From assembly GCA_000004985.1 (NCBI GenBank), contig GG738853.1: 64,000 nucleotides of DNA; one strand, given 5' to 3'. This DNA comes from Naegleria gruberi. Taxonomy: Eukaryota. Shown piece after piece: positions 33,474 through 60,819 of this stretch. The notes below the pieces were generated by a model. That model did not search any database and was not told where the DNA came from. It saw nothing but the letters and a program-made list of their open reading frames with translations. Every line of letters starts with the position of its first letter. Position 1 is the stretch's first letter. Made by a program: the position numbers and the translations under genes.

Positions 33474-34817
33474 TCATTCGTATTGTGTATTCCTAATAGA
33501 TGCATCACTTGAAAAGTTTTTCCCATAAATTGAGATGTAATCCTCAGGAAATTGATTTTTTCTAAAAGTTTGTAAAATGCATGGATGAACAGCTCGTTCC
33601 GAACATCCAACAATGGTCATTCTACATGTCTGAAGAGTTTCCTCACTCTGAATTCCTTGTAGCAATTGGTGTTTGTAAGTGTCATTGTCAAAATAATGTT
33701 GATTATCAGAATTTTCTGATGGACTCAATGTGAGATTCCTTAAAGAGTGATGTTTCAATAAGTTTTTCAGGGAATTCTTCTTTTTCAATGATGTATTATA
33801 TTGGGATGGATCGTAAAATTCATGAATATGCACATGTTCCAATGAAAATGGTTTAATTTCTCTCAAAAATTCCGAACAAATTGAAATGACACACTTCCTT
33901 ATCGAATAATCTTCTCCCAACTCGAAGAAACCCTCATAATCACTTCCAACAATAGATTCAACAACTGTTGGGACATTCACATCACCAGCAACTGCTGTAT
34001 TATTCCTATAATTTGGAGGTATCGAATTTACCTTATTCGACAAACTATTCGAATGTTTTACAATTAATTCCTCACTTAAAATTCCCTCAAAATATTGAAT
34101 CCTCCTCCTCACTCTCACAATAAACTCCTGTAAAACTCCTTGCATGATAAGAGCTTGATGTTGAACTGAATTTAAACCTTTCGAATTTCGATTATTCATT
34201 TCCAATATTCTCCTATTCGTTAGTTGATTAAGGAAGGGTATCGTATTTTGTAATTGGTGCCTCCACATACTATCATTAGGTTCAATTATATGAAAAATGT
34301 AGGATTGAAAAAGTTTGCAACTCGATGAAAATTGAAGAATGTCTGGAAGGCAAAGAAATGGAAAAATTAAATCGAATATTAATTCGAAAGGGAGTTGTTT
34401 GAAAGTCTTGTGGTTGATTTCTAGGGAGGATTGAATGTAGAGGTGAGAAATGGGCCGTTTCGTATTTGATGATGAAGTGTTGGTAGAACTATTCGAATCG
34501 GAAGAACGAAAGTCATGTTCATGATTGTTTTGAGGAGTTGGTGCAGAGAAAGCCTTGAATTTAGTTAGATGATTAGTTCGGACACATTTAATATCATCAC
34601 CATGGTCTTCATCAGTTTCCAATATTATATCTGAAAGTGGTTGAATTTGTTTCTTGAAAATGTTTCTTTCGGCTGTTTTACTAACGGTCTGCAAGATTTT
34701 GTTATCTGTTTTAATCGCTGATGATGTTGATGGTTCAGACAATTTACCATTGACCTTTCGAATAGGAAGTTGTGTCATTTTGTTCGAAAAGTTTATTGGT
34801 GATTTGTCCATTTGCAT
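33474..34817 (-). CDS. F-box-like protein (hypothetical)
   Basis: Open frame of 457 aa in the ORF track, ending in TGA at 33474. The first in-frame ATG is at 34817 (MQMDK...). An internal motif LPFELIFDLIFPFLCLPDILQFSSSCKLFQ resembles an F-box. The C-terminal part matches no domain I recognise. The 3' end could continue into the gap by splicing. Confidence 0.5.
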   Translation of the reverse strand: MQMDKSPINFSNKMTQLPIRKVNGKLSEPSTSSAIKTDNKILQTVSKTAERNIFKKQIQPLSDIILETDEDHGDDIKCVRTNHLTKFKAFSAPTPQNNHEHDFRSSDSNSSTNTSSSNTKRPISHLYIQSSLEINHKTFKQLPFELIFDLIFPFLCLPDILQFSSSCKLFQSYIFHIIEPNDSMWRHQLQNTIPFLNQLTNRRILEMNNRNSKGLNSVQHQALIMQGVLQEFIVRVRRRIQYFEGILSEELIVKHSNSLSNKVNSIPPNYRNNTAVAGDVNVPTVVESIVGSDYEGFFELGEDYSIRKCVISICSEFLREIKPFSLEHVHIHEFYDPSQYNTSLKKKNSLKNLLKHHSLRNLTLSPSENSDNQHYFDNDTYKHQLLQGIQSEETLQTCRMTIVGCSERAVHPCILQTFRKNQFPEDYISIYGKNFSSDASIRNTQYE

Positions 34818-34989
34818 CTCGTATTGACAGCTGTTATAATTTCTCAAATTGTCATCTCCAACACTTTCTATTCGAAATGCCTCAACACTTTCACATCCTA
34901 AACTTTTTGTAAACTTTCTTCTTTACAAAATAATATTATTGAATGAAATACAAAAATCAAATTTCTCAATAATAATAATACAAAAAAAA

Positions 34990-37116
34990 ATGCAAAACTC
35001 AAACACAGGCGACACCACATCAACCTCTCATACAACGCTGCCGCAGCCACCATCAAAAAATTCGGAATTTTCCTTCCTCACCAATTCCGATGGTTATTCA
35101 TCAATAGAAGATGAAGAACAATTTTCCAAATTAAAACCAAAACGATATGGTGGAGAGTTGGATGAGGGACATGCCTTTTACTTCTCCGATATGATTGATA
35201 TTATGTCGAAGGAGAAGGATTTGAATAGAAAGTTTTATCGGATGAGAGTTTTGTTGCACGGGAGTAGGGAGAAGAAGGAACGACCATTGTTTCAGCATGA
35301 ATCTGATGTGGTATTGTCGTGGACTTCATCATTGAGGGCTTCGGAGGTGATGTATCGATCAGTGCAAGCTTTTGGCACTGGATTGGAACGTGATTTGCAG
35401 AAATTGGTTGAGTTTGGACTTGTGAATCACTTGTTGATATTTATTACACATGGATATAGATTTAGATTTTGGGATGAGGGAGCTCCTACGAGAGATGATG
35501 TTTCAGTAGATCATTTCCTATATGAACCACGCAATTTTCAAGATATGTCGCTTCACTATCCAATGTATGCTGCAGAAACATTATTGTTAATTCTTAAACA
35601 CTCGGACTGGAATACCTTTTTGGCAATTATGGAACGATACTTTTCTAGTAAGCAAAATGGACCTAGAAGTAGTAAATTAATTAATGATGGAAAGCACACC
35701 ATTATGAATGGTGTCGGTGTATTTTACAAATCATTGAAATATGGATTGGCAGGAATGAAGGAAACTATACTCGTCATTCTCAAAACCATTCACACTCGAT
35801 GCAAAACATTCCAAAAGAATATACTCTACAATACTAAATTCCCACTCATTGAAGCATTGTTTGAATGCATCGATTCTCTGACGCCAGAGAATCTCTGCAA
35901 AGAACTCAGCACTCTTCCAGGTGAAGCTCAAAAGAGGCATTTTGGTAACAGGTTTGACCCTACTACAGAAAGTGGAAAAATTGTAATAGGGTATTGGACA
36001 GAAAATGTTAGAGATTCAATTGTTGATGTTATTGGAATCTTTTTAAATGAAGCCAAGAAAAATGGCAATAGAAAAATGTATTTGGATCCAAAGTATGTCT
36101 TTCCGTGGACTGAGGAAGAAATCAAGGTCAAGCCAGACAGAGCAAACTATAACAAAATATTGCACCGAATGACAGATCTGATTTATCAAAAGCCACTCAC
36201 TGAATTGAAAGTGATACAATATCATTATTGGTTACCTGGAATGTTTTCAAACATGCTATTTGAGAAGGAAGTTTGTGACAGCTCTAATTCCTTGGAACAA
36301 GTGATTGACATTGATTATCAATTATTGGACTTTATTTCAGGAGAGGATGAAATGTTGGACAAGTTGTTTGGCTTTATGAAGAGATTGTATCATGATCCAA
36401 TGTACAAATTGTCAAACTTTCTCGAGTCAACACGTCGCTTTTTGATTGCTCACGATGGAACTGATCATCCATTCGAAATTACACATAATAAGTTCAGACA
36501 TTTGATGGAAATGATAGAGTTATCAATGGTGGATTTACTTTCTTGGATTACATGCAATTCTTTAACAGCTTACAAATGTGTACAATATGATAATCACATT
36601 CTAATGGAGGATTTTCTTAAGCAAGATAACAACTTTACGGAATATTTAAATATGGATGTATTTTCAAAACCTGCTCTTTCATTCCATTCAATACTAGATG
36701 AAACAGAAGGCTACTATTCTATGGGAAGGAATACATGCATTCTCTCCATCATACACAACATGTTCATTGCCGCTCCTGAGCATGCCAATAGGCTGCCGGA
36801 TATACATAACTTGCTGCTTAAAGGTGTAATCGAAAATAAGGATCTGATTAATACTTGTTTTGTGAGTGGCATTAAGAATTATCAAATTGGATTACATGCT
36901 TATATAAGTTTATTTAGAGTGTTTGGAGAGTTAATGGAAGAGTTTGTTGGAAAGGCACAAGTCGATCAACAAAGAGCCATACTTTCTAGTAACATTGGTG
37001 AAATGTGTTTGAGAATTGATAAACATGATCTTGCCGAAAAGTATCTGAAATACTCCCTCAAATATGATCCAAATAACGAAAAGACAAAGAGAAGACTTGA
37101 TAGAGTAAAGAAATAA
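34990..37116 (+). CDS. Hypothetical protein with C-terminal TPR-like helix pair
   Basis: Long open frame (track entry 34849..37116). The first in-frame ATG, at 34990, follows an A-run (caaaaaaaaATG), the same start context seen at other genes here. It terminates in TAA. The C-terminus (LAEKYLKYSLKYDPNNEKTKRRL) is TPR-like. Confidence 0.55.
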   Translation: MQNSNTGDTTSTSHTTLPQPPSKNSEFSFLTNSDGYSSIEDEEQFSKLKPKRYGGELDEGHAFYFSDMIDIMSKEKDLNRKFYRMRVLLHGSREKKERPLFQHESDVVLSWTSSLRASEVMYRSVQAFGTGLERDLQKLVEFGLVNHLLIFITHGYRFRFWDEGAPTRDDVSVDHFLYEPRNFQDMSLHYPMYAAETLLLILKHSDWNTFLAIMERYFSSKQNGPRSSKLINDGKHTIMNGVGVFYKSLKYGLAGMKETILVILKTIHTRCKTFQKNILYNTKFPLIEALFECIDSLTPENLCKELSTLPGEAQKRHFGNRFDPTTESGKIVIGYWTENVRDSIVDVIGIFLNEAKKNGNRKMYLDPKYVFPWTEEEIKVKPDRANYNKILHRMTDLIYQKPLTELKVIQYHYWLPGMFSNMLFEKEVCDSSNSLEQVIDIDYQLLDFISGEDEMLDKLFGFMKRLYHDPMYKLSNFLESTRRFLIAHDGTDHPFEITHNKFRHLMEMIELSMVDLLSWITCNSLTAYKCVQYDNHILMEDFLKQDNNFTEYLNMDVFSKPALSFHSILDETEGYYSMGRNTCILSIIHNMFIAAPEHANRLPDIHNLLLKGVIENKDLINTCFVSGIKNYQIGLHAYISLFRVFGELMEEFVGKAQVDQQRAILSSNIGEMCLRIDKHDLAEKYLKYSLKYDPNNEKTKRRLDRVKK

Positions 37117-37227
37117 AATGAAATGTGTATAATGTTCACAATAAATTCATAGCTGCCATCTATCGTACTTCAAAAGCTGTAAAGGAAAGAAATAAAACTG
37201 TAATGTCTTCCTTCTAATAAAAACTAT

Positions 37228-38496: not shown

Positions 38497-39007
38497 TTTT
38501 TTTTAAAAAGAAATAAAAATTTGAAAAAGTTATTTTGCAATTGGAAACAATTGAATTATTGGAATCAATACGAAAGATATGGTTTCGAATTTCGAAGAAT
38601 AAATTGGATAAAGAAGTTATTCGAAAGGTAAGTGATATTAAGTTGAATGGTGTAATTGATGTTTGTAAAATTGTTTTTTGTAACTTGGGTTCGATTTAAC
38701 GGTTATCTTTATGACAAGCAAATACCGCCAGTCAAATGTCAAACACTACCATTAAAAAAAATGAGGCCTCATGCCGTGGCCTCTTCATCGAGTCTCTCCA
38801 CACGACCTATGGTTAGAAAGATAGTTTCCGATATTGAAAACTTTCTCATCGAAGGTTTGTGTTTTAAAATTCACAAGAAAATTAATTTTCCCGCTTCTTT
38901 TTGAAATCTTTGAAAAAACGGAAAAAAATTTGAAAAAACCAAAAATCTTCATCATTTGTTTTTATTCATTTAAATAATTATTATTATTATATTACTATAA
39001 CAACAAA

Positions 39008-39082
39008 ATGTCGGAATTTTGCTGGAAATACTCTCGGAATGGATCATATAATCGAATGAAAATTTTGGAAAATTCATGATGA
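39008..39082 (+). other. Short upstream ORF (24 codons) ahead of the giant ORF, or a remnant of its first exon
   Basis: ATG at 39008 (aacaaaATGtcg) opens a 24-codon frame ending in TGA. It lies in a different frame from the downstream 2221-aa ORF. Confidence 0.3.
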
Positions 39083-39113
39083 TATCAAAATAGTTGAGAA
39101 AAGTAAAGACCAA

Positions 39114-42100
39114 GTGATTCCGGTCATTCCCATCACAGCCTCCTACTATCGAGATAAGGTTTCCTACTTTAAAGAACAATTGAGAAAGCAGAGATTGTAT
39201 TCCAATCAGACAGCCACTCTCCTTCCTTCAGCTAGTAATTTTGCAGATGATTCATCCTCATCCTTCCAACAACAACAACATTCAACAACTACCTCTCCCT
39301 TCAATCCATCAACAAAGAGATTTATAGGAGGGAATGCATCACCGAATAATGGACCAGTTACCATCACAAAGAAAGGAACTGATAATTCTGTAAATAGTGA
39401 TTTGGATTATTTCGATGATAAGTGGAGTCTCTACAGAGAGTACATTACTCTCCAGAAACAAATTGAGGAAGTTCAACAGGATTCGGATTTGAATTATATT
39501 GAAATGAGAAGGAGAGTCGATTTGGCTCAAGTTTTCAGAGAACATGGAGAATTTTCTGAAGCTTTTATTCAATTAGAACTTGTGGAACAGTCGGCTCAAC
39601 AGAAGGCAGAGAGTGGTGAATTTGATCCAAAAGTTGAGTTGTTACATGCCAAATGTCTGTTTTTACTTTCAATTGTTTTGAAACAAAAGAATAGATCAGA
39701 TGATGCAACAGAATATTTGGAATCTTCAAAGGAAAGAACTGATTACTTGCTCAAAGTAATTTCTCCAGCAAATACTCACAAGGATCAGTGTACTAATTTT
39801 GTTTTCAAATCGGCTCGTTTACTGCTCTCTGAAATTTCCCTGTACAGCTCTGAGGATTTAATTTCACAACAACAAAAGAACTTTCAAGCCCTTCCATTGG
39901 GTCAAAAACTCACCATCAATGAAGAAGCAAATATTGAAAAGATTTTGAGTGAATATCTCATACCTGGCTTGCAGAATGTGAAAATTGTGAGTGGCTCCCA
40001 GAAGGTTACAGTTTCCAATTTGGAAGTTTTCAGAAATTTGTGTTACTACTCTGCTGTTTGTATGATGATGTTGAGGGAAAACAAACTTTCCAAACAGTTA
40101 CTCTCTGTCGCAGAGAATACCTCTCCACTCAAATCAAATGGAAAGAATCACAATAGAAGTGATAGTGACATTTATCTGGAAGCCAATGTGGAAATTGATA
40201 AGAAAATTACTAAACTAGCCATCGATATCAAAATTGCAGAGGAAAAGATGGAAAAGGAAAAGCAAGCATCAACCTCTCAAAAGCACACCTCAAAGAATCA
40301 CAAATTTAAGGATGATAGTGATGAAAGCGACGATGATGCTTGGGATGATTTTGTGCCAACAGGAGCTCTCTCTGGCTTGGCTAAACTAATTCTAGGAGAT
40401 AACAGTGAAGAGGAAGACGCAGATGAAGATCCAATCAGTACTGACATCTTCCCTTCCAAATACAGACTTTTCAAGTCTAGAATTTATAAGGAGGAAGACG
40501 ACAAGTTACCTCAATGTATTTTAACAGACTCGCTGGTGAATCCAATTGGAGTGTCTCCCATGTCACCAGCTTGCAGTAATACATTTAGTAATAGAGAGGA
40601 ATTTAAAAAGTGGATACAACTCTTGAATGCAATTCCAACCAATCCAAATCCTTACACACAAAACATTCCAGTAACAATTTTCGGATATAGTCTTAATGAT
40701 CGATTGCAAATGAATGGTAATCAATTGTGCAGTCTCTACGATAAGCTGATACAGAGCGAGGCATTTACCTCAAAATGGATCAAAGTGTATTTTGAGCTGT
40801 GCACTCGGTTGTACAATGTCAGCTCGATGGAAATGATGATTTCACAACAACAAACAGAAGTTTCTCAACAGGCTCTCTCACTCCAACAAAAATGTGCACA
40901 AATGCTGTTGAACTATTTCAACTTGTTAAAGCAACACAAAACCAAGCATTCTTCAATGTCTTCATCTATTATTTCTGCATCCATGTCTAATATAGATTCG
41001 AATCCAGATATCATGAGCAAATTGAATGATATTTCAGACAAGTTGGTCGAAAAGAAAGCCTTCCTTTTCACAGTAAGTATGGAAATGTTTGCCATTGCAG
41101 GTAGACTCTTCCATCCAGAAGAAGAGGAAATTGGATTTATTGTAGGTGTGTTGAAGGAATGGTTTGGTTCTCAGATAATGTACATTCAATTGGCCAAACT
41201 TCAAGCAACCATCCGATTCCACATGAGATTATTCCGATATGATTGCATGATGCCAATGAAGGAAGAAATTAGAAAAGTCTACGATGAATTACTTAATTTA
41301 TTCGATAATATTGAATCTGCTGAATCATTACCAACTGCCGAGAGTCCACAACCTAATGCTGTCAACCACAGATCATCTGCAAGAAATAATCAAGCTTACA
41401 GTATTGAAAAGCACTATTCTCCAAATCTTTCCACAGTTGCTGCCAAGGTCATTATTCTGTTCCACAGATATCACAACTTTTGGATCACATCTCTGAGAAG
41501 AGGTTCTGCAGATGATGAATGGGCCTACATGCCAGAGCTACCAAAGCACAAACTCTTATCAGATAAGGAAAGATTTTCACTCCTCCTAAGAAAGTATTAT
41601 CCAAAGATTCCTCTCTGTCATACGAAAGCAGAAGTTGCCTATACTGTTGGAAGTTACTGGTTGAGACAACCTAAATCTAAGGATGATAGACAATTGGCAG
41701 AGTGTGTTCTCTTTGAATGTATATATCTGTATTATAAGTTGAGTCAGAGCGTTCAATCTTTTGGTTTTTCATTCATGATTACCAATGATGCTCTAAAGGC
41801 ATTGAAGAAATTTTCAGAGGTTCTCTATGCCAATGACAAGTACGAGTACTCCTCCCTGTGCTATGAAGTCTATGTGAACAATTACAAATTGTTGAGAGGA
41901 CGACACGATTATCAGTTCATTGACGATCTCACATCCGTAACAACGAAACACAATGACTACAAGCACTCTGTCAAGTATTATGAAATTCTCTACGAAAAGG
42001 CAAAGGAAGAAAAGAAGATTCCACAAATTGCCAGACTATCAACAAAATTGGCCAATCTTTATATGGAAAAGGGTGAAGTATTGGAAGCAGAGAGAATTAA

Positions 42101-45100
42101 ATTGGAATCGATTGACTATGCCAAGAGATATGGTACATTGATGGACTATAAGACGGATCTTGAAATTGAGCTGGGCACCTTACTGTTGCAGGGAGGTAAA
42201 TTTGAGAAGTGTATTGCTGTACTTTATAGTGTAGCACAAGAACAGGCCAACAAGAGACACATTGTCTATGAAATTCTATCGAGAGCCTACCTCAAGAAAC
42301 GTTGGTTTGCCGAGTGTGAAGATTCTCTCACAGAAATAGCCAATGTATTGGTAAACTTTTATATTCAATTGAACCAACAACAAGAAATGAGAATTTTGGA
42401 AACTGTGAGCAAGTACTACTTTAAACGTAGCATGTTTGGATATGCACTCGAGTGTGTAAATATTGCCCTCTATAGATGTTCAGGAACATTTGCTGTTCTT
42501 GCCAATCTATTCAAGCTTAAGGGAAAGATTCTGAAATCAATTTGTCAGTACAGCACTCGTCTCTCCTTCCCATGTTCTATTAGTGAATCTACGGAGGAAG
42601 AATTACATCAGCTTGTCACCCAAATAGAACAAACTCCTTCCAATAGAAATAATCTCTATGAAGGTATCAATGAAAATGATTGTTCCTTTGTTTTCAGCAA
42701 GAGGCCAACTTACTACTGCGTTGCACAACTGTTACAGGATTGCATCGACTGTTTCACAAAAGCTGCTGGATACTATGAAGCTTGTTCAAATCAAATTGGA
42801 GAGGCCAAGGTTAATTTGCTAATTTCTGAAACTCTACTTGATTATTTGTTTGTTCCTGTTGCTCTTCTTGGAAAGGATCCAGAGCCATATATCAAGCTCA
42901 AAGAACAGAGTGAGGAAAATAGAAAGAAGAATGCTGATCCTCAACACAGCCAATTCAAACCTATTACACCATTGGACTATCTCGATTTGAATCACATATT
43001 TGCAAACTATATTGAAGCTGCATTGGAAACTTCAGTGGCTGCATGTGATGTCTTTTTGTGCATGAATTCGTATATCACTTCTGCCGAGTGTAAATATTTG
43101 CAAGGCAAAATTTCAAGTGCCAAGAGTTTTTGGTGTGAATGTAGAGATGTTCTTTTCACTCTTTTCATTGATAGTGACTCACATGTGATATTGTCATCTG
43201 GTACTCCACTTGGTGTTATTGAAAAGCTCATGATTATTGTAAAGAGAATGGTTCGTCTCTTGTTCTGCTTTGAACCTGAATTTGTCAATCAACATTTAGG
43301 AATTTTTGATGTATACTATGTAATTGATATTCAATATGAACAGGCAGCTAAAAGATTGCCAACATTTGATGCTGAAAGTGAATACGTCGATAAGGATCAG
43401 CAACATCCATTATCCCTCGAGTATTATAACAATTACTTCTACTCAAATTTGGATAAGATTATTGGAAATAATAAGCAATTATCAGAGGCAGATAAGCAAC
43501 TTCTCATCAAGAACAAACTCTTTGAAATTTTACAAAAGAGAGTGACTGCCACTTCTTCAACCTATTTAACACCTTCACTACCTTCTTCCTTCTCTTCTTC
43601 ATCTCTGAGTACATTGACTACACTTAGAAAGGGTACTCTAAAGAAGTCAGCCTCCATTTCATCCAGCTCAAGTAATGATAAATCAAGCGAAGGATCATTG
43701 GGAAGTGCCACAATTTCACAATTCCTAGATGTTCCAACAACAACACACAAGAAGAGCTCACCATCAGAATTTATCAAACCAAACATGACTCAACTCAAGC
43801 AAAAGATTTTGGAAAGAGTTTTCGGATGTATCTTGACTATGAAGCAAGACAGTAAAAAGTATTCGAATGAAATTCACGACAGACTTAAGGCCAGAAATCA
43901 AGAATGTATGAGAAGATTGTACAATTTAATGAATGCCATCAGAGAGAGTGGAATTTCTATCTCCAAACACAAGAAGGGTAAGAAAGGTGCCTCTACCATT
44001 AATTTCTCAAATGAAGCTCCTTTGAGTCCACTCTTTGCAAAATCTCCACATATTGTCTCGCCAAAACAACGTGAAAGATCCATGTCTGTTGATGCTGGAA
44101 ACACTGGAGGTACTCTGATGACAATGGACTTGCTTCCAGGAGATGTAGAATTGATGGAAATGCTTATCAGAACTGTAAATCTCCAAAAGGGAACAAAATT
44201 GAAAGGAACCATTCAACAAACTATGAATATTCACCTCATCTTGGAAAGAAACATTGCAAGGTATACATCCATTTCACCAGATATTAATTGCCTTGAGGAA
44301 AATTTCAAACTCGTCCAAAAGATGAAACTGTTGGACCAATTGGTCTATGTCTTTTATATTGACAGTGTTTTGATTTTCTACATTCCTAAAGAAGGTAGAA
44401 AGGTTGTCATACCTTTTGGTGGAAGAGATCACGCAATATTGGATGATAAAATTAGAAATGTTATCGATCTCAATGAAAGCCCGGCTACTCCAAGACGAGG
44501 TCAAAACGATTCTGTGGAATTCCTCTCCAATAAGGTATCCAATTGGAGTACAAAAGATTTAGGAAAGGACTTGACTCTCATTGACGATTACTTACTCACT
44601 TTGATAACCAGGAGTGCTCGAGAAAAGAAAACTAAAAAGTTTACTCACGAAGATATTGTCAAGGGATTGAGCAAGGTTCTGAATGCCCAATCAGTATTCT
44701 CATACAAGCCAGACCTTGCTAAATACGAAGAATTCAAAAAGAGTATTTCACTGCTGAACTTTTCCTTCAAACAATTATACACTCAAAAAACAGGAACAAT
44801 CTCAGGTACTTTATCATCAACATTTGGTCGTAAAAAATCTATTGGCTCAATACCAAAACTCGATCAATTACCAACCTTTGATGATCATATTATTCTTCTC
44901 TGTAATAGTTTCCTGAATGTAATACCTTGGGAGCTTCTGTTTGAAGTTAGCTTGACGAGAGTGAATGCTATTCAGTACTTTATTGGAAGAATCAAGAAGA
45001 AGAAATCCAGTGAAGCCAAGATTAGTAGATTCATTGCTTTCTACTCTGAAGATGAAGCCAAATTCATTTTGCCTGCAGAACAAGAAAGAAAGGAATGGAT

Positions 45101-51076: not shown

Positions 51077-51713
51077 TTTTGAGAAAGTCAACTTGAGTGC
51101 AGCTAAGCGGATTGGTAGAAATTTTTTATGGACTTTACAATAAAGATGTAATTTTTCAGAATAGGTAAAGAGACAGAACCAAGTAATAGGATCATCATCA
51201 AGATGTTTGTTAGTATGGCAAATGTTGTTTTTCTTGATCAACGTTTGTTTGTTGCTGTGGAGAATTTTATCAAAGTTTAATCATCACGAATTTTATTGTG
51301 CAATATTTGTTTATTTATTTCTTCTGTGATGACTTTTATACAACAGCCACTAAACACTCATCATTACATACCTCTATACTATCTATTTATTGATCGCTTG
51401 TGATGATTGGTATTCTATTCATCCAACTATAAATTCCATCTTTAAAATGTAGGTGATGATGAAGCCTTTCCGCTGCCAGCAAAAGCAGAGAAAGAAACCG
51501 TAGATTATTCTGGAGCGGAATTGATGATTAGAAGGAAAAAGAAAGTTATGGATTCATCGCATATGATTATTAGCTGCATTCGCAATGATATATTGTTGGT
51601 TGTATGATGTGTTTTGAAAAGGAATCAATTCATGTTAATTCTGTAGATATTTATTGCATATTACGAAATTCTTATTTGACTAATCAGATAGAAGGCAATG
51701 TATTTGATTTATA

Positions 51714-53108
51714 TTAATGACAAACTCTTGGCTGAAAACTTGATAAGTTTCTACAGTCAAATGTCTTTACGTTTGTGTTCATCATAAAAATCGAGCTCTT
51801 TAACAAGGTATCACCAGCATCAGTAAAGTCATTGTAGGAAAGATCCAATGTCTTTAGAGCTGGGAAGGACAATTTGGCAAATGCTTTGATTCCAACATCT
51901 CCAATTAAATTTAAGCCAATCTCGAGAACTTCTAATCTAAAAAGATTTGAGCCTGTTTCATCATTTTCACTGGCGAGTCCTAATAACCCAGTGTCACAAA
52001 TTGCTGGCTTATTGGCATGTAAATTCAATCTTCTTAAATTTTGCAAATATTCTGATTGACCCAAAGCACAGGCACCTTCTGGTCCAATGACATTGTTTTG
52101 CAAGCCAAGAGAGGTCAAGTTTTTGATGAATGGATTATTGGCAAGAGTTTTGGCTCCAGCTTGATCAATTCCACATGAACCAAGTTTGAGAGATTTGATA
52201 TGTTTCAATATTTCACTTCCAACTAGGGCATTTCCTGCAGTGGAACCAATTTCATTTGAAGAAATATCCAATTTGGTCAAATTCTTTACATATTCAGTAT
52301 TAACTAGAGCTAGAGCACCTTCCTCTCCAATATAATTATATTCTACATTCAAAAGTTGTAAATCAGCCATATTTGGTGAATTTGCAATAGCAATCAATCC
52401 TTCATTTCCAATTCTTCCAGAGAATATTTCCAATTTTTTCAATTTGAATGCATTAACAATAGCTTTGGCTCCTTCGGCACCTATCTCACAATAACCCAGG
52501 TTAAGTTCTGTTAGATTTTTCATATTTGGACTGGAGCAAATGGATAATACACCTTCACTTGAGAAATTATTTGCATATACATCCAAAACTTTCAATTGTT
52601 TCAAATTCTCTGATTGGGCAATTAACATGAGTCCTTTATCTTTGATGCTATTTCCTCTTGCTTTCAAAACCTCTAAACTTGGTAAAGAGGATGAAATAAT
52701 TGACATGCTCTTATCATCTAGCTGATTGTAATTAATATTGAGCTCTTTCAATTTTGCAGAATATAATCCAGTAGTAATTCCACTAATATCACCTCCTTTC
52801 AATTGTGAATTATTAATGGTAATGGACTGTATAAAGCAATATTTCAACATGCCATTCGAAGTTTTGGATTTTAAATCTTTGGTAGAGGAAGCCCAAATTT
52901 GTGTCTTCAAACCACAAAACTGCAAAATAATAACTCGCCACTGCCGACACACTTTTGAATAACTTTTGATAAAGTCTTGAAACTCAGCTTCGGAATTGAT
53001 GAAGGAAAATATATGGAGACAAATATCGTTGGAAAATTTGTCATTCGTTGATACGGCCAAGTCTGATAAATCGGTGTGAGCGAGTTCTCTAGTTTGTTGT
53101 GATCCCAT
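51714..53108 (-). CDS. F-box-like protein with RI-type leucine-rich repeats
   Basis: The open frame runs to 53192, but the ATG at 53108 has the A-run context (cctcaaaaaaATG) and is followed by an F-box-like motif (DICLHIFSFINSEAEFQDFIKSYSKVCRQWR). At least 10 repeats of ~28 aa follow, of the form LxxLxLxxNxIGxEGAxAL (ribonuclease-inhibitor/NLR type). Stop is TAA. Confidence 0.75.
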   Translation of the reverse strand: MGSQQTRELAHTDLSDLAVSTNDKFSNDICLHIFSFINSEAEFQDFIKSYSKVCRQWRVIILQFCGLKTQIWASSTKDLKSKTSNGMLKYCFIQSITINNSQLKGGDISGITTGLYSAKLKELNINYNQLDDKSMSIISSSLPSLEVLKARGNSIKDKGLMLIAQSENLKQLKVLDVYANNFSSEGVLSICSSPNMKNLTELNLGYCEIGAEGAKAIVNAFKLKKLEIFSGRIGNEGLIAIANSPNMADLQLLNVEYNYIGEEGALALVNTEYVKNLTKLDISSNEIGSTAGNALVGSEILKHIKSLKLGSCGIDQAGAKTLANNPFIKNLTSLGLQNNVIGPEGACALGQSEYLQNLRRLNLHANKPAICDTGLLGLASENDETGSNLFRLEVLEIGLNLIGDVGIKAFAKLSFPALKTLDLSYNDFTDAGDTLLKSSIFMMNTNVKTFDCRNLSSFQPRVCH

Positions 53109-53282
53109 TTTTTTGAGGTTCTTTGTTATTGGCTTCAGATGATTGACATTTTGTAATCTTATACCAAGTTCGAAAAAAAGAACAAAATTCATCAGGACTT
53201 ATTGAGCAAGACAACAAAAACAAAACACATCCTTGCCAAACAGCTGAATACTGATATGGTTAAATATTTAAGATAAATGTAA

Positions 53283-53354
53283 GGGACCATGGTCTAGTGG
53301 TATGATTCTCGCTTTGGGTGCGAGAGGCCGTGGGTTCGATTCCCACTGGTCCCC
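53283..53354 (+). tRNA. tRNA-Pro (anticodon TGG)
   Basis: GGGACCATGGTCTAGTGGTATGATTCTCGCTTTGGGTGCGAGAGGCCGTGGGTTCGATTCCCACTGGTCCC. The 7-bp acceptor stem pairs GGGACCA with TGGTCCC. The anticodon loop TTTGGGT gives UGG. The T-loop is GGTTCGATTCC, and it closely matches eukaryotic tRNA-Pro. A TTTCCTTTT run follows the gene. Confidence 0.92.
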
Positions 53355-53807
53355 TTTCCTTTTAGTTGTTTTCCTCAAATTGTTTTTAAAGTGTTAAACA
53401 TATGTATGAATTGGTATTATTTTAATCTTTATTTAATTTGAACGACTACCTCAAAAACAAGACGCCATTTCATATGAAGCATGTTTGCTCCAATTACTCG
53501 TAACATCATAGATATTCATTGCTGCTACCAATTCGTCTTCATACAGAAATCCTGAACAAGAGAAGCATGCTCGTGGTGATTATCGTGATGCAGAGAATAA
53601 CAATGAATGGTTGTTTTGTCTCAATCTTTTTTGGTTTTTTTGAAATGAGTGGACATTTTAGGTCAGTGTTATCTTAATTGATTATCTTTATGGAACCTTG
53701 ATAGAATTGAACCAAAATTTCACCATAGAAACTATACATTCTATGAACAATAAGTATATGAGAATGATCATCATATCAAAACGATTAAGGGAGAAAGAGA
53801 CAAAATT

Positions 53808-53888
53808 TGCAGAAGGTGGGATTTGAACCCACGAAGCTTGCGCAGTAGAACTTGAGTCTACCCCCTTTGACCACTCGGGAACCCCTGC
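53808..53888 (-). tRNA. tRNA-Leu (anticodon CAA), class II with long variable arm
   Basis: Reverse complement reads GCAGGGGTTCCCGAGTGGTCAAAGGGGGTAGACTCAAGTTCTACTGCGCAAGCTTCGTGGGTTCAAATCCCACCTTCTGC. The anticodon stem GTAGA/TCTAC encloses the loop CTCAAGT, giving CAA. The T-loop is GGTTCAAATCC. The acceptor stem has two G-U pairs. A T-run follows the 3' end. Confidence 0.88.
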
Positions 53889-54591
53889 TTCACATTTAGA
53901 ATAACAACTGGTTTTTCACATTGAAATAGACTAAAAACTCATTTATCTTATTTTTTCTAATTAGAAAGGTTTTCAGTGCCTTCAACTGGAAACATGCTTC
54001 GCTGTAGGTTTCCTCGTTCATAGATGATTGCTGCATTCCTTACCAGCCATGGTTTGTGAATGGGGGATTTGTGAACATGCAGATTGGTACCTTAAACTTT
54101 TTATTAATTAATAGAAAAATCACGCCTTTTAGGCAAAATGAAAGATTCCAACCTTTTATAATCACTATTAACATTCTGTAGATTGTGTAGAGAGCATGAT
54201 AATTCAACATTTAGTTATCTTCATGCACTGTATTGGAGTATTAAAGAATAACTTACTGAACCAACAATCAATAGATTCGTTACTCACTGCTCATACATAA
54301 AGACTGTAGCAAGATTGTCACCATATTCCTAGCAGGCTTCCTGTCCATTAAAACTAAAAGAATATCAACAACTACTGTTTTCAAAATGATATTGGTTCAG
54401 ATTATCGTTTCCTTATTCAATATTAAGTTTTTCTTAAAATTGCTACTTCCAAATCATGCTACATGCCTCTTTTCGATTAAGCCAGTACTATTTCTTATTA
54501 AGCCACTCAACCAAATGCAACCTTTTAACCATTTGGTTTATCAATCATGATTTATTTGTTATTAAAATGCTTATTTTCTTAGTGATGTCAA

Positions 54592-55410
54592 TTATTTCAT
54601 TTCACTTATGTATTTAACTCCTTCATCACCACTTTGACTGTAACCAATATCAAGTGATGTTAATTGCTTCATTTTGCTAATGTATTTGTATCCTTCACCA
54701 CTAATTTCATTGGCAGAAATATCAAGTGATGTTAATTGTTTCATTTCACTTATGTATTTGGCTCCTTTATCACCAATTTGATTATTAGCAATATCGAGTG
54801 ATGTTAATTGTTTCATTTCACTTATGAATTTAACTCCTTCATCACCACTTTGATTGCTACCAATATTAAGTGATGTTAACTGTTTCATTTCACTTATGTA
54901 TTTAGCTCCTTCACCACTAATTTCATTGGCAGAAATATCAAGTGATGTTAATTGTTTCATTTCACTTATGTATTTGGCTCCTTCATCACCAATTTGGATT
55001 ATCACCAATATCGAGTGAGGTTAATTGTTTCATTTCACTTATGTATTTAACTCCTTTATCACCAATTTCATTGTAACCAATATTAAGCGATATCAATTGT
55101 TTCATTTCACTTATATATTTGGCTTCTTCATCACTAATTCGATTTACACCAATATTAAGTGATGTTAATTGTTTCATTTCACTTAGGTATTTGACACCTT
55201 CATTGCTAATTTCATTGTCATAAATATTGAGTGATGTTAATTGTTTCATTTCACTTATGTATTTGGCTCCTTTATCACCAATTTCATTTTCAGAAATGTT
55301 AAGTGATAGTAATTGTTTCATTTCACTTATATATTTAACTCCTTCTACACAAATTTGATTATTAGTAATATTGAGTGATGTTAATTGTTTCATTTCACTT
55401 ATAAATTTGG
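54592..55410. repeat. 72-bp tandem repeat array (~11 units) encoding the LRR units
   Basis: The motif ttaattgtttcatttcacttatgtatttggctcc...tcaccaattt recurs with a 72-bp period (for example ttcacttatg at 54601, 54673, 54745 ...) and with very high unit identity. Confidence 0.85.
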
Positions 55411-55777
55411 TCTGGTTGGTTTTTACTAAAGAGGCAAGCAACCAACGATAAACTTTAACCTTAACAATACTATTCAGGAATTGACTTTTCATGAATAATT
55501 CAACTCGTTTCTCTGTAAATTTTTTTTTAAATTGAATACCAAGTTTTGAGCGTTCCTTGATCACATTAAAGAATTGTTTTGAAATTAAAGAACAATTATT
55601 TAAAATAAACCACGAATCATCAAGCATGGAAATTATTTCAAAACAAACATCATCTGAAAATATTTCTTGTTGAAGTTTCACACTTTTTGATTTCTCTTCC
55701 ATAATATTGTTAATGAATATTTCCTCCGAATTAATGAATTGATGATTTTCTAAATCTTGTCGATTTCGTTTTCTCAT
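54592..55777 (-). pseudogene. F-box-like / LRR protein gene carrying a frameshift in its repeat array
   Basis: Track ORFs 54986..55777 and 54592..55008 overlap in frames that differ by +1. ATG 55777 has the A-run context. The N-terminus has an F-box-like motif (DDVCFEIISMLDDSWFILNNCSLISKQFF), followed by 24-aa LRRs (ISEMKQLTSLNIxxNEIxDxGxKY). At ~55000 the unit reads aatccaaatt-ggtgat where the other units read gaaattagtggtgaa, a 2-nt loss. This is either a genuine pseudogene or an assembly error in the repeat. Confidence 0.65.
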
Positions 55778-55872
55778 TTTTTTATAAATATCATAAATTT
55801 ATGTGCAGAGTAATGTTGAGCTGATGTTATGATTATTTTCTTATTCAACATTCAGTTATTAAGGAAAGAAAT

Positions 55873-55990
55873 GGCTACGGCCATATCACGATGAATGCAC
55901 CTCATCCCGTCCGATTTGAGAAGTTAAGCATCGTAGAGCCACATCAGTACTGAGGTTGGAGACAACTTGGGAACCTGTGGTGCTGTAGTC
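55873..55990 (+). rRNA. 5S ribosomal RNA gene (copy 1)
   Basis: GGCTACGGCCATATCACGATGAATGCACC...GGGAACCTGTGGTGCTGTAGTC (118 nt) matches the eukaryotic 5S consensus at the conserved helices, including the internal Pol III control region around GAAGTTAAGC. The Pol III terminator TTTTT follows immediately. Confidence 0.93.
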
Positions 55991-56245
55991 TTTTTATCTT
56001 TATGGAGAGAATATTAGTTTGTAATTTTCAGAATAACATGATGGTGTTAATATTTCCTTTATTTTTAAATATTAAGGAAATGCCCATGAAAATACCATGA
56101 TTCATGGACAAGGATTTGATCTTGTGCTCTGGTCAACGGATTTGAAGCATGACTGAAATTAGAAAAGACTTTAAGGGTAACCTGTTCATGCTTAATAATA
56201 AAAAACGAAATCAATTAATGGACATGAATGGGAAACCTGGCATTC

Positions 56246-57179
56246 TCAAAAGATGCTCTTTCTATGAATGATATTGAATCCACTCTCTTCATATTCCTCT
56301 AAGGTTATACGCATCGATGGGAAGGTTGATAATTGGGAGAAAATACTACCACCAAGCCACGCAGTGTACTTTCTATCTGGTGGTGCTATTATTCGAATGT
56401 TCATTGAAGAATGAGATAATTCCCTCAATTCATTATCCAATCGTTCTACTATTCCATTGAACAATGTCGATCCTCCTGAAAGAATAATATTCGAATACAA
56501 TTCCTTTCTAATATCTAAATCCGACTTTCTAATAGAAGTGAAAATATTTTCATGAATTCCACCAACTTCCATTCCAATAAGATTTGGTTGAAATAATATC
56601 TCACTAGTTTTGTATCTTTCACTTCCAAGTGCAATTATATTTCCATCCGGTAATTCATATGAAATTTCTGATATTGTTTCTTCCAAAAAATTACTAGCAA
56701 CACAACCAGCGAAGCCTGGACCGAGGGGAAACCCTTGACCCGGGACGAGCCAGCTGTTTTTCAATATTGATTACCCGCATTAAGCGGGAAACCCTCGCAA
56801 GAGGAACCCCATACCTCAGAGACCCAAACGATTCATTCGTTTAGGCTCGAATCGAGTTCATAATGGCAAACGGATGGATAGCCAGTAGGTGGTGCAAACC
56901 AACGAACGCTTAATTAAATATATAATCCCATATCTTTTCCATGTGATCAAAGTCAGTAATCAAACCACGATCAATTGGATATTTGAAAACATTCACACCT
57001 CTCCTTCCCAATGCAATATCTCCAACGAATGTGTCAATGGAGCCCATTCCAACCATGATGGTGGATACTTTTTGTCATCCAGTAACTGTGGGAAAGACCA
57101 CACATGGAGCATCATCAATAAAACCAGCTTTCATGAGAGAGGAACCATTATCAATGATGAGAGGTGGATGTTCAGACAT
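56246..57179 (-). pseudogene. Actin pseudogene (nonsense codon; central third replaced by GC-rich block)
   Basis: Minus-strand translation from ATG 57179 reads MSEHPPLIIDNGSSLMKAGFIDDAPCVVFPTVTG*QKVSTIMVGMGSIDTFVGDIALGRRGVNVFKYPIDRGLITDFDHMEKIWDYIFN*. This aligns with actin residues ~1-92. TGA replaces the Arg of the VGRPRH segment with no change in length. The C-terminal ORF 56246..~56700 reads SYELPDGNIIALGSERYKTSEILFQPNLIGMEVGGIHE...IIAPPDRKYTAWLGGSIFSQLSTFPSMRITLEEYEESGFNIIHRKSIF*, matching actin ~239-375. About 145 residues (actin 93-238) are missing. They are replaced by ~200 bp at 56700..56905 of ~50-60% GC. Confidence 0.8.
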
Positions 57180-57301
57180 TTTTTTTTTGTAAACTTAGTG
57201 TTATATGGTTGGTTCATGCAACAACATGGTGAGTTAAGGGCGAACAAATACTGACAACAAAACCTAATTAAAACCTTGAAGCTGACTGATGTAAAAGGAA
57301 A

Positions 57302-57374
57302 CGCCCACCGTGGGGGTCGAACCCACGACCACAAGGTTAAGAGCCTTGCGCTCTACCGACTGAGCTAGACGGGC
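57302..57374 (-). tRNA. tRNA-Lys (anticodon CTT)
   Basis: Reverse complement reads GCCCGTCTAGCTCAGTCGGTAGAGCGCAAGGCTCTTAACCTTGTGGTCGTGGGTTCGACCCCCACGGTGGGCG. The anticodon loop CTCTTAA gives CUU. It is nearly identical to metazoan and fungal tRNA-Lys(CUU). A T-rich run follows the 3' end. Confidence 0.92.
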
Positions 57375-57445
57375 TACATTGCTTAATAAATCGTTTCCTT
57401 AATAACGATTTCTATGGTAAAATTCAAGTTTACTATTGATTAATT

Positions 57446-58932
57446 TCAATGTTCTGCGATTCTACAATAATCAGATTTTGATACATCAACTGCAATTCCT
57501 ATTTTGTTGAATTCCTCTTCAATTTGTTGAATCACGATATCCCTATTCGGATTATTTTCAAGTTGAATATTATTATATCTCAAATCAACAAATTCTAACA
57601 ATGTGAATTCTTTTCTCTGTAATTGGATTTGCTCTGCAATAAATAGTGCATCATTTTCTGTTGTTGAACCTGATAATGATAAATCCAATACGCGAACTCT
57701 TTTTGCAATATTTGATTTCATAATAAGTGGTAAGAGTTGCGGAATATTATAAGTATTTCTCAGACCAAAATATTCTAATGTTGGATACTTTCCATTCTCT
57801 GATTCTGAAAGCAGTTCTGTTAAATTTTTTTCTGTAATATCATTTGTAATGTGACAGGTCGATCATTTTACTTCTTATTTGACAGGGTGACCCTAACCAT
57901 AATTCTAAATGTTTCAATTGTGGGAATGAGCAGTTAAGAATTGATTGTAACATGGAATTTTCCATTGCTCCTGTTCTTATAATTAATACTTTCAAGTTGT
58001 TCAATTTAACTGGCTCTTGAAAATCACAATATCCAGCTAGATAGAGAAATTTAAGATTTTTGAAATATTTTAGTATTGAGATAGAAGTATAACAGGAATT
58101 TCGTACATAATCATTGGTTGACTTGGTATTTTCTACATAAAATTTTTTCAAACTTGAAAGAAGAAGAATAAACTAACCTCGTATGGAAATAATATTATCC
58201 AACTCAATTGGTTCGTAAGCTTCCTGTTGTTCTATTATATAATTATTAAACGATTCATGAAAGTAATTAGAACTTGGATAGCTCAACGATAATTCTTCAA
58301 AAGTTTTCAATTTTTCAATAATGTCCTGTGTTTCCTTGACCAATTCAACTGCTGGTCTCATTTTCCCATCTCCTAGTTGTGCACTTTTCAATTCATTTTT
58401 AAAGAATTTTAATATATCCAATCTGTCTTTGATAATCTTTTTGATAATATTCAACAGTACTTGTTTTTCATTCTTAATACTAGTGCTGCGTTGATTCATT
58501 TTCTTAATTGATTCTTGCCACTTTTTTCTAATGCATTCCAATTTTTCATCTGTCATTCTCCCAGATTGCAAAAGCATTCTCACAATTACTGGATAACTCA
58601 TTATTTGCTGAACTGAAAGATACACAATTAAATAGTACTGGTAGTTGCACTGATGATAATGCAATTCTCTTATTAATAAATAAATCGTTATACATATTAA
58701 TAAAAAGAAATCTATTATTTGCAATCTTTCCATAATATTCCTTATTCAATAATAAACAACTTGTAATTGTTTTGTAATCCAAATACTGAAAAACAATATA
58801 ACAAATAATATCGGAGGAGAGATTTTTAAATGAAATGTTTGTAGGAGAGAGGAGAGCAAAATCGGGACAATTCTCGCTCCAATCATCACCACGATCAAAC
58901 GTATCATTGTGCTGATGATGGTGATTAAACAT
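57446..58932 (-). CDS. F-box-like protein with C-terminal LRR-like region (multi-exon; re-joins four track ORFs)
   Basis: ATG 58932 is in an A-run context (caaaaatcaaaaaaaATG). The N-terminus has an F-box-like motif (SDIICYIVFQYLDYKTITSCLLLNKEY). Track ORFs 58546..58932, 58173..58733, 57840..58151 and 57446..57721 are co-oriented, and consecutive pairs are joined by short GT..AG introns that restore the frame. One is a 40-nt intron, GTAAAA...TTACAG at 57832..57871. Another is a ~43-nt intron around 58608..58650 (GTGCAA...TTCAG, or alternatively a 31-nt GTACTA...TTCAG). The C-terminal exon has LRR-like LDLSLSG...LRYNNIQLENN. Stop is TGA at 57446. Confidence 0.6.
57832..57871 (-). other. Spliceosomal intron (40 nt, GTAAAA...TTACAG)
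   Basis: Removing it joins ...LWLGSPCQIR to KKNLTELLSESENGKYPTLEYFGLRNTYNIPQLLPLIMKSNIAKR... in one frame. Its length is 1 mod 3, which accounts for the +1 frame offset between the two track ORFs. Confidence 0.6.
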
Positions 58933-59073
58933 TTTTTTTGATTTTTGTAAAATTTGCTGAATTGGATTTCATAGCCTTAGAAACTCAAGTGTTGGTCATG
59001 TGAGCATCTAAGGTTTCAATTGGTTTTTAGAACTTGGAATTGGGCTGATATTTCACATTTTGAGGTAATGAAT

Positions 59074-59191
59074 GGCTACGGCCATATCACGATGAATGCA
59101 CCTCATCCCGTCCGATTTGAGAAGTTAAGCATCGTCGAGCCACATCAGTACTGAGGTTGGAGACAACTTGGGAACCTGTGGTGCTGTAGTC
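59074..59191 (+). rRNA. 5S ribosomal RNA gene (copy 2)
   Basis: 118 nt, identical to copy 1 except for one substitution (atcgtCgagcc here versus atcgtAgagcc). It has the same downstream TTTTTATCTTTAT, but different upstream flanks. Confidence 0.93.
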
Positions 59192-59376
59192 TTTTTATCT
59201 TTATCTTTTGTTGACCGATTTCCATCTCAGCACTTTCAATATTTCCTTCCTCAATCCTTTGTAATGCTTGGGTTTTGTGGGTTTGAGCTTTCAAAGTCAA
59301 TTTTGTAATCGCACTTAAAGTTCACAAATGTTTTGAATGTTGAAGTTTGACAACACACAAAGCCAAGTACTAAAAA

Positions 59377-60819
59377 ATGCATATACTTTCCCTCTCGTTG
59401 GATATTTGGCAATTTTGTATTTTTGAATATTGGCTTGGTCCCATTAGTGAAGTGAAATTAGATTCGAATGAAAATATTCTAAAATTTAAACATTTTTTTT
59501 ATCCAAAAATAGTGAATGGTTTGGATTTGGAAACAATTAGAGCAGTTCATAAATTGTGTCATGTTACTAGTAAAAAATCTAGTCACTTATTCATGATTGA
59601 AATGCACGATTTTTGGAAAAAAGTTTCAAATGTATTAGAAATGGTCGTTTATTGGAAACGATATCAAACTTTTGAGGGATTTTCCTTAGCAGTTGGAGAC
59701 ATTACTGTTGATGAGTCAGTTGCCCAAGTTAAAATGCAAAAGCTCATTGAGGCAACTGAAATGAATTCCAACAGAGAATATAACCAAATTATTGACCCTT
59801 CCATGTGTGAAAAAAATTCCTACTACTTTGGTGTGGACTTGGATCTCATACCGAATGATTTTACTGACGGAGAAGTGAACACGTTATTTGAGGAAAGAGT
59901 TCAGAAATTAATGGTATCTGAATCTAAATTTGAAAAGATAAGAGCCATCACTCAATTGGAACCATACGACTTGTTTTTACATAAGGCATTGATCTTGGCG
60001 CTTGATATGGTTTCTTACTTTGATAGTGAGAGACACATGAGTTACAGTACTTATAATTGCTATGACACATTTGAAAAGTGTTGTCTCATTTCGAAAGGTT
60101 TATTTACGAGAAACATGTCGGATCGTTCTCTTGGTCTATTAATTGACTTGGAGAATGAAAGGGAGGAAACTGTGAATCTCTTTGAAAAATTAGAGCCGAT
60201 TTATGTGGCCATTTCAATTCATATCACTCCAGATCATTATCAACACTTTACAGCACCCAAACATGCTCAATTTTTATGTCTTGCTTTTGCACACTTTTTG
60301 AATGAAACACCATGTCCCTATGAAAATTTCCTTGAAGGTCAGGAATTTCCAAATGTTCGTGATTTAACCATCAAGATGCCACCAATTGAAAATAACTATT
60401 ATTTCAAAATTGACACCAAGCAAGTGGAGAAGAACATTCTTTCCTCAATAACGAGGAAGAGATTTCCAAAGTTATTAAGAATTTCAATACAAGGATGTTC
60501 CAGAATAGATAATCTTTTAGAATTGGAAATATTTTCAGAGTTGATGTATGTGGAAATTATTCCACAGAAAATGGGAGACGATTACAATTATATTCTCAAT
60601 TGGTCTGAAAGAAGAGTTCACAATTTTATTAATCATCAATTTATTGAGAAGGATTCTTCATTGATTCACCAATTGGTTGTCCATGCAAATATTGTTAGGA
60701 ATAGTGCTGATGCCAATTATGACAGCATTAAGGAATTTTATGACATGAGTAGAGGAAAATTTGTGCCGTGCATTTCACGTTCCTCAATTAATGAATATTA
60801 TGATAGATGTTATGAATAA
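59377..60819 (+). CDS. Hypothetical protein, F-box-like N-terminus and LRR-like C-terminus
   Basis: 480-aa ORF. The ATG is in an A-run context (ctaaaaaATG), and the stop is TAA. The N-terminus reads LSLDIWQFCIFEYW. The C-terminus reads FPKLLRISIQGCSRIDNLLELEIFSELMYVEII, reminiscent of FBXL-type LRRs. I recognise no other domain. Confidence 0.6.
   Translation: MHILSLSLDIWQFCIFEYWLGPISEVKLDSNENILKFKHFFYPKIVNGLDLETIRAVHKLCHVTSKKSSHLFMIEMHDFWKKVSNVLEMVVYWKRYQTFEGFSLAVGDITVDESVAQVKMQKLIEATEMNSNREYNQIIDPSMCEKNSYYFGVDLDLIPNDFTDGEVNTLFEERVQKLMVSESKFEKIRAITQLEPYDLFLHKALILALDMVSYFDSERHMSYSTYNCYDTFEKCCLISKGLFTRNMSDRSLGLLIDLENEREETVNLFEKLEPIYVAISIHITPDHYQHFTAPKHAQFLCLAFAHFLNETPCPYENFLEGQEFPNVRDLTIKMPPIENNYYFKIDTKQVEKNILSSITRKRFPKLLRISIQGCSRIDNLLELEIFSELMYVEIIPQKMGDDYNYILNWSERRVHNFINHQFIEKDSSLIHQLVVHANIVRNSADANYDSIKEFYDMSRGKFVPCISRSSINEYYDRCYE

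Follow-up and report, generated by a model that had tools for sequence, protein, structure and literature searches.

The window analysed here is the whole of a 64,000-nucleotide (nt) stretch of contig GG738853.1 of Naegleria gruberi (GenBank assembly GCA_000004985.1). Several of its ORFs (open reading frames) are identical to annotated proteins of strain NEG-M. The first 33,348 bases of the window are all N; the real sequence runs from 33349 to 64000 (30.6 kb, approximately 34% GC) and holds 13 protein-coding genes. An earlier reading of the letters, here called the original prediction, had singled out five of these genes (G1 to G5) as a dense cluster of about 27 kb, consisting of paralogues with an F-box-like N-terminus and leucine-rich repeats (LRRs) and interspersed with RNA polymerase III (Pol III) genes. 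ORFs were indeed present at all five positions. Four of the genes, G2 to G5, lie together in 9.1 kb (51714-60819), but G1 is about 17 kb away from them, and six unrelated genes are interposed. The positions of the genes and of their features are listed in Table 1.

The N-terminal motif of the F-box-like helix was present in G1, G2, G3 and G4, in register and preceding the repeat region. Segments of 60 residues were compared with Pfam (E-values scaled to 24,736 models), and for G1, G2 and G3 the top or only family was F-box-like (PF12937). The G2 segment scored 24.0 bits against a gathering score of 24.3 (E = 3.4e-5), with a weaker match to PF00646 (E = 0.058), and the segments of G1 (14.9 bits, E = 0.024) and G3 (13.0 bits, E = 0.092) matched no other family. 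For G4 the signal comes from its orthologue in N. lovaniensis, P0016, which is called 'F-box domain-containing protein' in UniRef and whose segment matched PF12937 over profile positions 1-45 of 47 (13.2 bits, E = 0.078). Taken as a single pre-stated hypothesis, with only one model tested, the p-values ranged from about 1e-9 to 4e-6. None of the controls, 8 other proteins of the window and 2 antisense ORFs, gave an F-box match at E <= 10. When the G1 segment was compared with the PDB using phmmer, the top 7 matches were all F-boxes of Skp2 (E = 0.0096-0.22). In hhalign comparisons between the N-termini the helix-1 motif was always in register; MAFFT alignments of the five N-termini placed G2 wrongly and were left unused. 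Judged by F-box as the best or only family, with negative controls, the signature is found in G1, G2, G3 and the orthologue of G4 but not in G5; the F-box-like helix had been predicted for all five genes. We consider it probable, not proven, that G1 to G4 carry a divergent F-box-like module.

Several results weigh against this assignment. The gathering score of Pfam was reached by none of the five members, and with full-length proteins the sole F-box-like signal was a sub-threshold match in G2. The G4 segment itself gave no Pfam F-box match, nor did G5, either at full length or with its N-terminal segment. LRRs are absent from G1. The clustering speaks in favour, but its statistic depends on an assumed fraction of F-box genes: four or five of the 13 genes bear the signature, and even with F-box proteins encoded by 2% of all 15,708 N. 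gruberi genes (gene number from PMC8296547), the probability of at least 4 of 13 would be about 1e-4, with about 0.12 such windows expected genome-wide. The LP dipeptide that is canonical at the start of helix 1 is missing from G2, G3 and G4, and the hhalign probabilities between the N-termini were low (0.5-10%). A profile of G3, G4 and P0016 placed the F-box of FBXW8 first in the PDB at E = 0.34 and beta-TrCP at E = 1.2, mixed with 14-3-3 proteins, and the G2 segment found no F-box among PDB sequences.

Such sub-threshold scores, together with the low profile-profile probabilities, the absence of significant PDB matches for the G3/G4 and G5 profiles and the lack of mutual homology outside G2 and G3, would also be expected from a chance neighbourhood of unrelated LRR proteins and unknown proteins, in which an amphipathic helix resembles the loose F-box pattern and has no role with Skp1 or in the SCF (Skp1-Cul1-Rbx1) ubiquitin ligase. 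We regard this explanation as quite improbable: the same Pfam family came out as top or only family in four independent sequences, at a fixed place and in none of the ten controls, the PDB matches of G1 were confined to Skp2, and an F-box followed by LRRs is the canonical order of FBXL proteins. Our preferred reading, to which we assign a probability of about 0.6, is that the locus is a cluster of at least four lineage-specific, divergent F-box-like genes (G1 to G4), of which G2 to G4 are of the FBXL type, with G5 perhaps as a fifth.

Table 1. Genes and features of the locus, in window positions (aa, amino acids).
Feature	Position	Strand	Remarks
G1	33474-34817	-	ORF confirmed
G1 F-box-like segment LPFELIFDLIFPFLCLPDILQFSSSCKLF...	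34263-34394	-	aa 142-185, internal
755-aa ORF	34849-37116	+	
2221-aa ORF	39114-45779	+	
G2	51714-53108	-	ORF confirmed
G2 F-box-like segment FSNDICLHIFSFINSEAEFQDFIKSYSKVCRQWRVI	52917-53036	-	PF12937
tRNA-Pro (TGG)	53283-53354	+	ARAGORN; Rfam 62.4 bits
tRNA-Leu (CAA)	53808-53888	-	ARAGORN and Rfam
72-bp tandem array coding for the G3 LRRs	54581-55409	-	Tandem Repeats Finder (TRF); 11.5 copies, 81% matches
G3	54592-55777	-	ORF confirmed
G3 F-box-like segment IFSDDVCFEIISMLDDSWFILNNCSLISKQFFNVI	55541-55663	-	PF12937
5S rRNA gene, first	55873-55991	+	Rfam RF00001, 106.5 bits
Actin-like gene, divergent	56246-57056	-	at least 1 intron; between first 5S gene and tRNA-Lys
tRNA-Lys (CTT)	57302-57374	-	ARAGORN and Rfam; 72 bp downstream of G4 stop codon
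G4	57446-58932	-	ORF confirmed
G4 LRR-like C-terminal region (FPQLKHLELWLG..., YPTLEYFGLRN..., RVLDLSLSG...)	57473-58064	-	
G4 candidate 40-nt intron (GTAAAA...ACAG)	57832-57871	-	restores frame at second shift
G4 candidate 45-nt GT..AG intron	58133-58177	-	holds in-frame TAG; same position as 60-nt intron of N. lovaniensis orthologue
G4 candidate 43-nt GT..AG interval	58608-58650	-	would restore frame at first shift; ambiguous
G4 F-box-like segment LSSDIICYIVFQYLDYKTITSCLLLNKEYYGKIANNRFLF	58702-58821	-	via orthologue P0016
5S rRNA gene, second	59074-59192	+	Rfam; between divergent G4 and G5 start codons
G5	59377-60819	+	ORF confirmed
G5 N-terminal motif LSLDIWQFCIFEYWLG, followed after an inserted stretch of some 30 aa by LDLETIRAVHKLC...	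59392-59604	+	possible split F-box
G5 LRR solenoid, about aa 240-480	60094-60816	+	

G2 is an intact ORF of 464 aa, for which an alternative upstream ATG at 53192 is possible, and its F-box-like N-terminus is followed by LRRs of the RI/GALA type. The Pfam family LRR_6 matched these repeats in 8 stretches (E = 1.2e-37). The closest solved relatives were the GALA protein 9j7j (E = 1e-18), LegL1 (4xa9, E = 3.6e-8) and RanGAP. No annotated N. gruberi model of G2 was found. GALA proteins combine an F-box with LRRs of 24 residues, and the likeness of the locus to the GALA effectors of Ralstonia and LegL1 of Legionella lies in the LRRs of G2, which are nearest to 9j7j, and in the 24-residue LRRs of G3; the Naegleria genes, in contrast, are chromosomal and eukaryotic, and signs of a transfer either way were neither looked for nor found. 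The likeness of the G2 LRRs to bacterial effectors is in keeping with the much-debated trading of eukaryote-like domains between amoebae and their bacteria.

In G3 the F-box-like N-terminus is followed by 12 near-identical LRRs of 24 aa (LRR_6 matches of 1e-23 to 1e-27), encoded by a tandem array. The annotated product, XP_002680560 ('predicted protein'), is 263 aa long and stops at a frameshift. The GAAATGAA motif recurs in the array at a spacing of 72 nt, except for one interval of 144 nt, which reflects a variant form of the motif in one unit, and one of 73 nt. The 73-nt unit contains an extra C near 54996, and because of this the reading frame is shifted by +1. In addition, the last unit contains a TAA (54592-54594) where the other units have CAA. 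Beyond the shift, 138 more codons of near-identical LRRs are open in the shifted frame; judged from the array, the lesion is therefore recent, or an assembly error.

G4 consists of an F-box-like N-terminus, a helical middle part and a C-terminal LRR region of the type of PDB entry 2ra8. The sole relative of G4 found among 5.8 billion proteins was P0016, with 33% identity over 96% coverage. A profile of the two proteins matched 2ra8_A at E = 7.2e-8, and G4 showed weak matches to the Pfam families LRR_4 and LRR_At5g56370. The 2ra8 structure, which also came first among the LRR matches of a further search, belongs to an uncharacterised protein of Bacteroides fragilis (Q64V53); it differs from G4 in being bacterial and in lacking an F-box-like N-terminus, and has no known function.

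The reading frame of G4 is broken three times; the tblastn alignment with P0016 is spread over three frames and contains a single in-frame TAG. For each of the interruptions there is a GT-AG interval, 40-45 nt long, that could bridge it (Table 1); for the first shift there are 22 candidate intervals, all with weak 5' splice sites. A minimum intron length of 30 bp has been used for Naegleria (PMC8296547). The spliced product aligned end to end with P0016, including across the junction of the 40-nt intron. Database searches yielded no N. gruberi protein encoded here, and an exact look-up of 8 spliced candidates and 2 ORF fragments was empty. Judging from these alignments, G4 may be an intact gene with three introns rather than a pseudogene. 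Two of the five genes had been described as disrupted; this holds for G3, with its 1-bp insertion and TAA, and G4 may be a second case or an intact gene.

G1 is identical to XP_002680556 (NAEGRDRAFT_46850), a 447-aa product named 'predicted protein'. At full length it gave no Pfam match, and no homologue was detected among the 5.8 billion proteins. The gene is located 125 bp from the start of the real sequence, and so may lack its 3' end or further exons downstream. The last 75 or so residues (TIVGCSERAVHPCILQTFRKNQFPEDY..., region 33349-33640, minus strand) show a weak similarity to the N-terminal part of Rho GTPases (RhoA, E = 0.051), which seems to run past the G1 stop codon in another frame (EDAFFKLKLVDMPTDAW...) as far as the sequence reaches. 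The sole Pfam match of the joined tail segment was Roc (E = 0.02), and there was no match in the PDB. With these sub-threshold values a Rho-GTPase domain at the C-terminus of G1 is not claimed; the tail may be a degenerate GTPase-like region, giving an architecture of F-box plus GTPase, or the similarity may be due to chance. A comparable combination is found in TbFRP of Euglenozoa, which joins a FYVE domain to an F-box and a Ras-like GTPase (PMC3593210). G1 shares with it the F-box-like segment and the weak Rho/Roc-like C-terminal end, but it has no FYVE domain, its GTPase similarity is sub-threshold, its P-loop is degenerate and its frame is broken. The same study reports no FRP orthologue for N. 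gruberi (PMC3593210).

Taken together, the frameshift and stop codon within the repeat units of G3, the threefold broken frame of G4 with no N. gruberi protein found for it, and the end of the G1 ORF where the weak GTPase-like similarity goes on in another frame could indicate that dead adaptor genes have collected here. In that case G3 and G4 would be pseudogenes, G1 a decaying orphan and the locus a Pol III-rich, gene-poor or recombination-prone spot. We consider this improbable. The ORFs of G2 and G5 are long and undamaged, and the N-terminal 263 aa of G3 are open, annotated and contain five to six LRRs. Moreover, each interruption of G4 is spliceable, one of them at a conserved intron position, to a product that matches P0016 over its whole length.

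LRRs were identified in four of the five members, in G2 and G3 by Pfam, in G4 through 2ra8, and in G5, in agreement with the claim that most of the genes carry them. In an all-versus-all BLASTP comparison, G2 and G3 were related through their LRRs (E of about 1e-13 to 1e-15), and G1 and G5 matched no other member. The N-termini of G3 and of G4/P0016 were weakly similar, with E-values between 2e-4 and 3e-3 for a database of seven sequences. The members are at most 33% identical and too divergent for meaningful synonymous-site estimates of the kind that dN/dS requires. It had been stated that the genes are divergent and not simple tandem duplicates, which is borne out by these comparisons; their description as one family of paralogues is not, only G2 and G3 being clearly related.

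The genes had also been described as fast-evolving, and this agrees with the distribution of their relatives: none was detected for G1, that of G4 is distant, the close ones of G5 are specific to N. gruberi, and the syntenic region of N. lovaniensis keeps only G4. Of the genes of the window, just two recur in this region around P0016 (L001), the G4 orthologue and the FAD-monooxygenase gene. Within 10 kb on either side of P0016 it contained no further gene with an F-box or LRRs, and it had no tRNA or 5S gene. An ESCO1/2-type acetyltransferase gene (L001 8687-9655, minus strand) separates the FAD-monooxygenase gene from the G4 orthologue and occupies the place of G5 and a 5S gene in N. gruberi.

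In the proposed mechanism, which follows what is established for F-box proteins, the N-terminal helical module of about 40 residues would dock on Skp1 of the SCF ubiquitin ligase, and the LRR surface would pick the substrates for ubiquitylation. Cullin-family genes have been reported in Naegleria (PMC9928731). Since several subfamilies are present among the genes, the locus would be a neighbourhood of adaptor genes and not a tandem array of recent duplicates. Turnover would be rapid, as suggested by the fresh frameshift of G3 in a homogenised 72-bp array, by G1 being without detected relatives and by the retention of G4 alone at the syntenic site of N. lovaniensis. That the proteins bind Skp1 and work in SCF ligases, and that the genes undergo birth-and-death evolution, is what we infer.

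FBXL-type proteins (Skp2, FBXL2/3/5/17, KDM2A/B, TIR1, MAX2, Dia2) differ from the Naegleria proteins in several respects. The F-box scores of the latter are sub-threshold, G2 to G4 are without the LP dipeptide, and the LRRs are RI/GALA-like (G2 and G3) or 2ra8-like (G4 and G5) instead of the cysteine-containing FBXL type. No orthology of the cluster genes to any named FBXL protein was found. Clustered, fast-evolving F-box families (FBA, FBD and LRR F-box) are known in plants and nematodes. The present locus resembles these in that its genes are locally clustered and highly divergent, include pseudogenised members and differ in presence between lineages. However, the plant and nematode clusters arose for the most part by recent tandem duplication within a single subfamily, whereas here at least four subfamilies are found and only G2 and G3 are related. 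The cluster is real but of an ordinary kind, and current understanding is unchallenged by it. F-box/LRR adaptors select the proteins that are to be destroyed in a cell; the searched literature contained no account of fast-evolving adaptor clusters in Heterolobosea, and nothing usable on a census of F-box or LRR families in Naegleria. The analysis offers functional hints for five poorly annotated or unannotated genes of N. gruberi and a candidate set for SCF adaptor turnover in a deep-branching eukaryote.

The ORF of G5 is 480 aa long, and the NCBI model (P0008, 405 aa) begins at Met76. The 75 N-terminal residues omitted from this model (59377-59601) are conserved in the paralogues P0013, P0011 and P0021, and several paralogue models look shortened in the same way. 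All but one of the 8 close relatives of G5 are annotated N. gruberi proteins encoded on other scaffolds (the exception is an ENA sequence), and none has a Pfam domain. An exhaustive profile search retrieved 31 proteins at E <= 0.001, 3 of which are plant NLR-type LRR proteins and not members of the family. Ten of the proteins were looked up; these were from N. gruberi, N. lovaniensis, N. fowleri or Willaertia magna, or were ENA sequences. The family is restricted to Heterolobosea. The N-terminus shared by 19 members consists of LPxEL..I..FLxG, 20-60 variable residues and IPPfENIKtL...K. Next come a conserved helical domain some 150 residues long and an LRR solenoid of the 2ra8 type, and some members contain BRCT or other inserted domains.

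An AlphaFold2 (AF2) model of G5, based on an alignment of 32 sequences, had a pLDDT of 88.5 and a pTM of 0.90. It superseded an earlier model from 8 close paralogues, which had a pLDDT of 54 and gave meaningless Foldseek matches (TIM barrels, with a TM-score of about 0.16). G4 matched the LRR region of G5 in hhalign with a probability of 14% (P = 0.002). The LRR arrays of plant NLR proteins (P0036 and P0038) matched positions 324-369 of the G5 profile 10-14 times, and this segment is therefore a single LRR unit. By profile and model, G5 is an LRR protein; as an F-box protein it is a possible fifth member.

The F-box question was followed in the N-termini of the whole family. The LPxEL..I..FLxG motif is in register with helix 1 of the F-box. 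After deletion of the insertion, 7 of 10 distant members matched only F-box or F-box-like families (E of 4e-4 to 0.34), one of them across both halves at E = 4e-4, and a fragment from N. fowleri is named 'F-box domain-containing protein' in UniRef. The predicted helices H8-20, H51-63 and H66-75 of the G5 model are compatible with helices 1 to 3 plus an inserted helix. The insertion-deleted N-termini of three Naegleria sequences of the G5 type, on the other hand, gave no F-box match. Profiles of the N-terminus, with and without the insertion, found no F-box in the PDB, or helix 1 of FBXL2 at E = 0.35; matches of these profiles to thioredoxin, NlpI and LRRTM were rejected as spurious. Foldseek with the 32-sequence model returned nothing, and thus no fold match to an F-box.

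These results leave room for a narrower cluster, made up of G2 to G4 with or without G1, in which the G5 family has a distinct, undescribed helical N-terminal domain of about 240 aa that is not an F-box. G5 would then lie beside G4 by chance, or as an old divergent duplicate sharing the 2ra8-like LRR type. The negative searches with G5 itself agree with this, and the motif, the matches of the distant members, the N. fowleri annotation and the helix positions speak against it; we take it as a serious alternative at somewhat less than even odds. We suggest more tentatively, and on the doubtful side, that this undescribed heterolobosean family, which has no Pfam family of its own, has an F-box split by an insertion of 20-60 residues. 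Should its members bind Skp1, SCF adaptors would gain a structural subclass that is new; otherwise, the N-terminal domain of the family would be a new fold. Either way G5 and its approximately 30 relatives are indicated as LRR proteins with a confident structural model, and the structural definition of this family is the most original by-product of the analysis.

Two N. gruberi relatives of G5 have unusual architectures. P0028 contains a BRCT domain between the N-terminal domain and the LRRs. P0011, a paralogue of 720 aa on another scaffold, has a C-terminal fragment of RNase H (Pfam, E = 3e-4) fused upstream of its G5-like part, and may be a gene-model fusion with the remnant of a retroelement.

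The Pol III genes predicted to be interspersed with the cluster were confirmed as three tRNA genes (48.7-66.4 bits, with a gathering threshold (GA) of 29) and two 5S rRNA genes (105-106.5 bits, GA 38), all above the thresholds of their covariance models. The five genes lie within 6 kb (53283-59192) and, counting from the space upstream of G2 as far as G5, occupy 5 of the 6 gaps between genes. The two 5S genes are each 96-185 bp upstream of the start codon of an F-box-like gene; the first one is divergent from G3, at 96 bp from its start codon. The stretch repeated between the two 5S copies is 153 nt long and 95% identical. A large segmental duplication comprising a 5S gene and an F-box gene was ruled out, since the repeat is confined to these 153 nt around the 5S genes.

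The divergent actin-like gene sits in the middle of the cluster, among the F-box-like genes. Between G1 and G2 the gene order is the 755-aa ORF, an ATP-grasp protein, the 2221-aa ORF, topoisomerase II and a SAP-domain protein; beyond sub-threshold TPR matches, the 755-aa and 2221-aa ORFs have no Pfam domain. G5 is followed by the FAD-monooxygenase gene, which contains introns, and then by a gene for a Ras-like GTPase.

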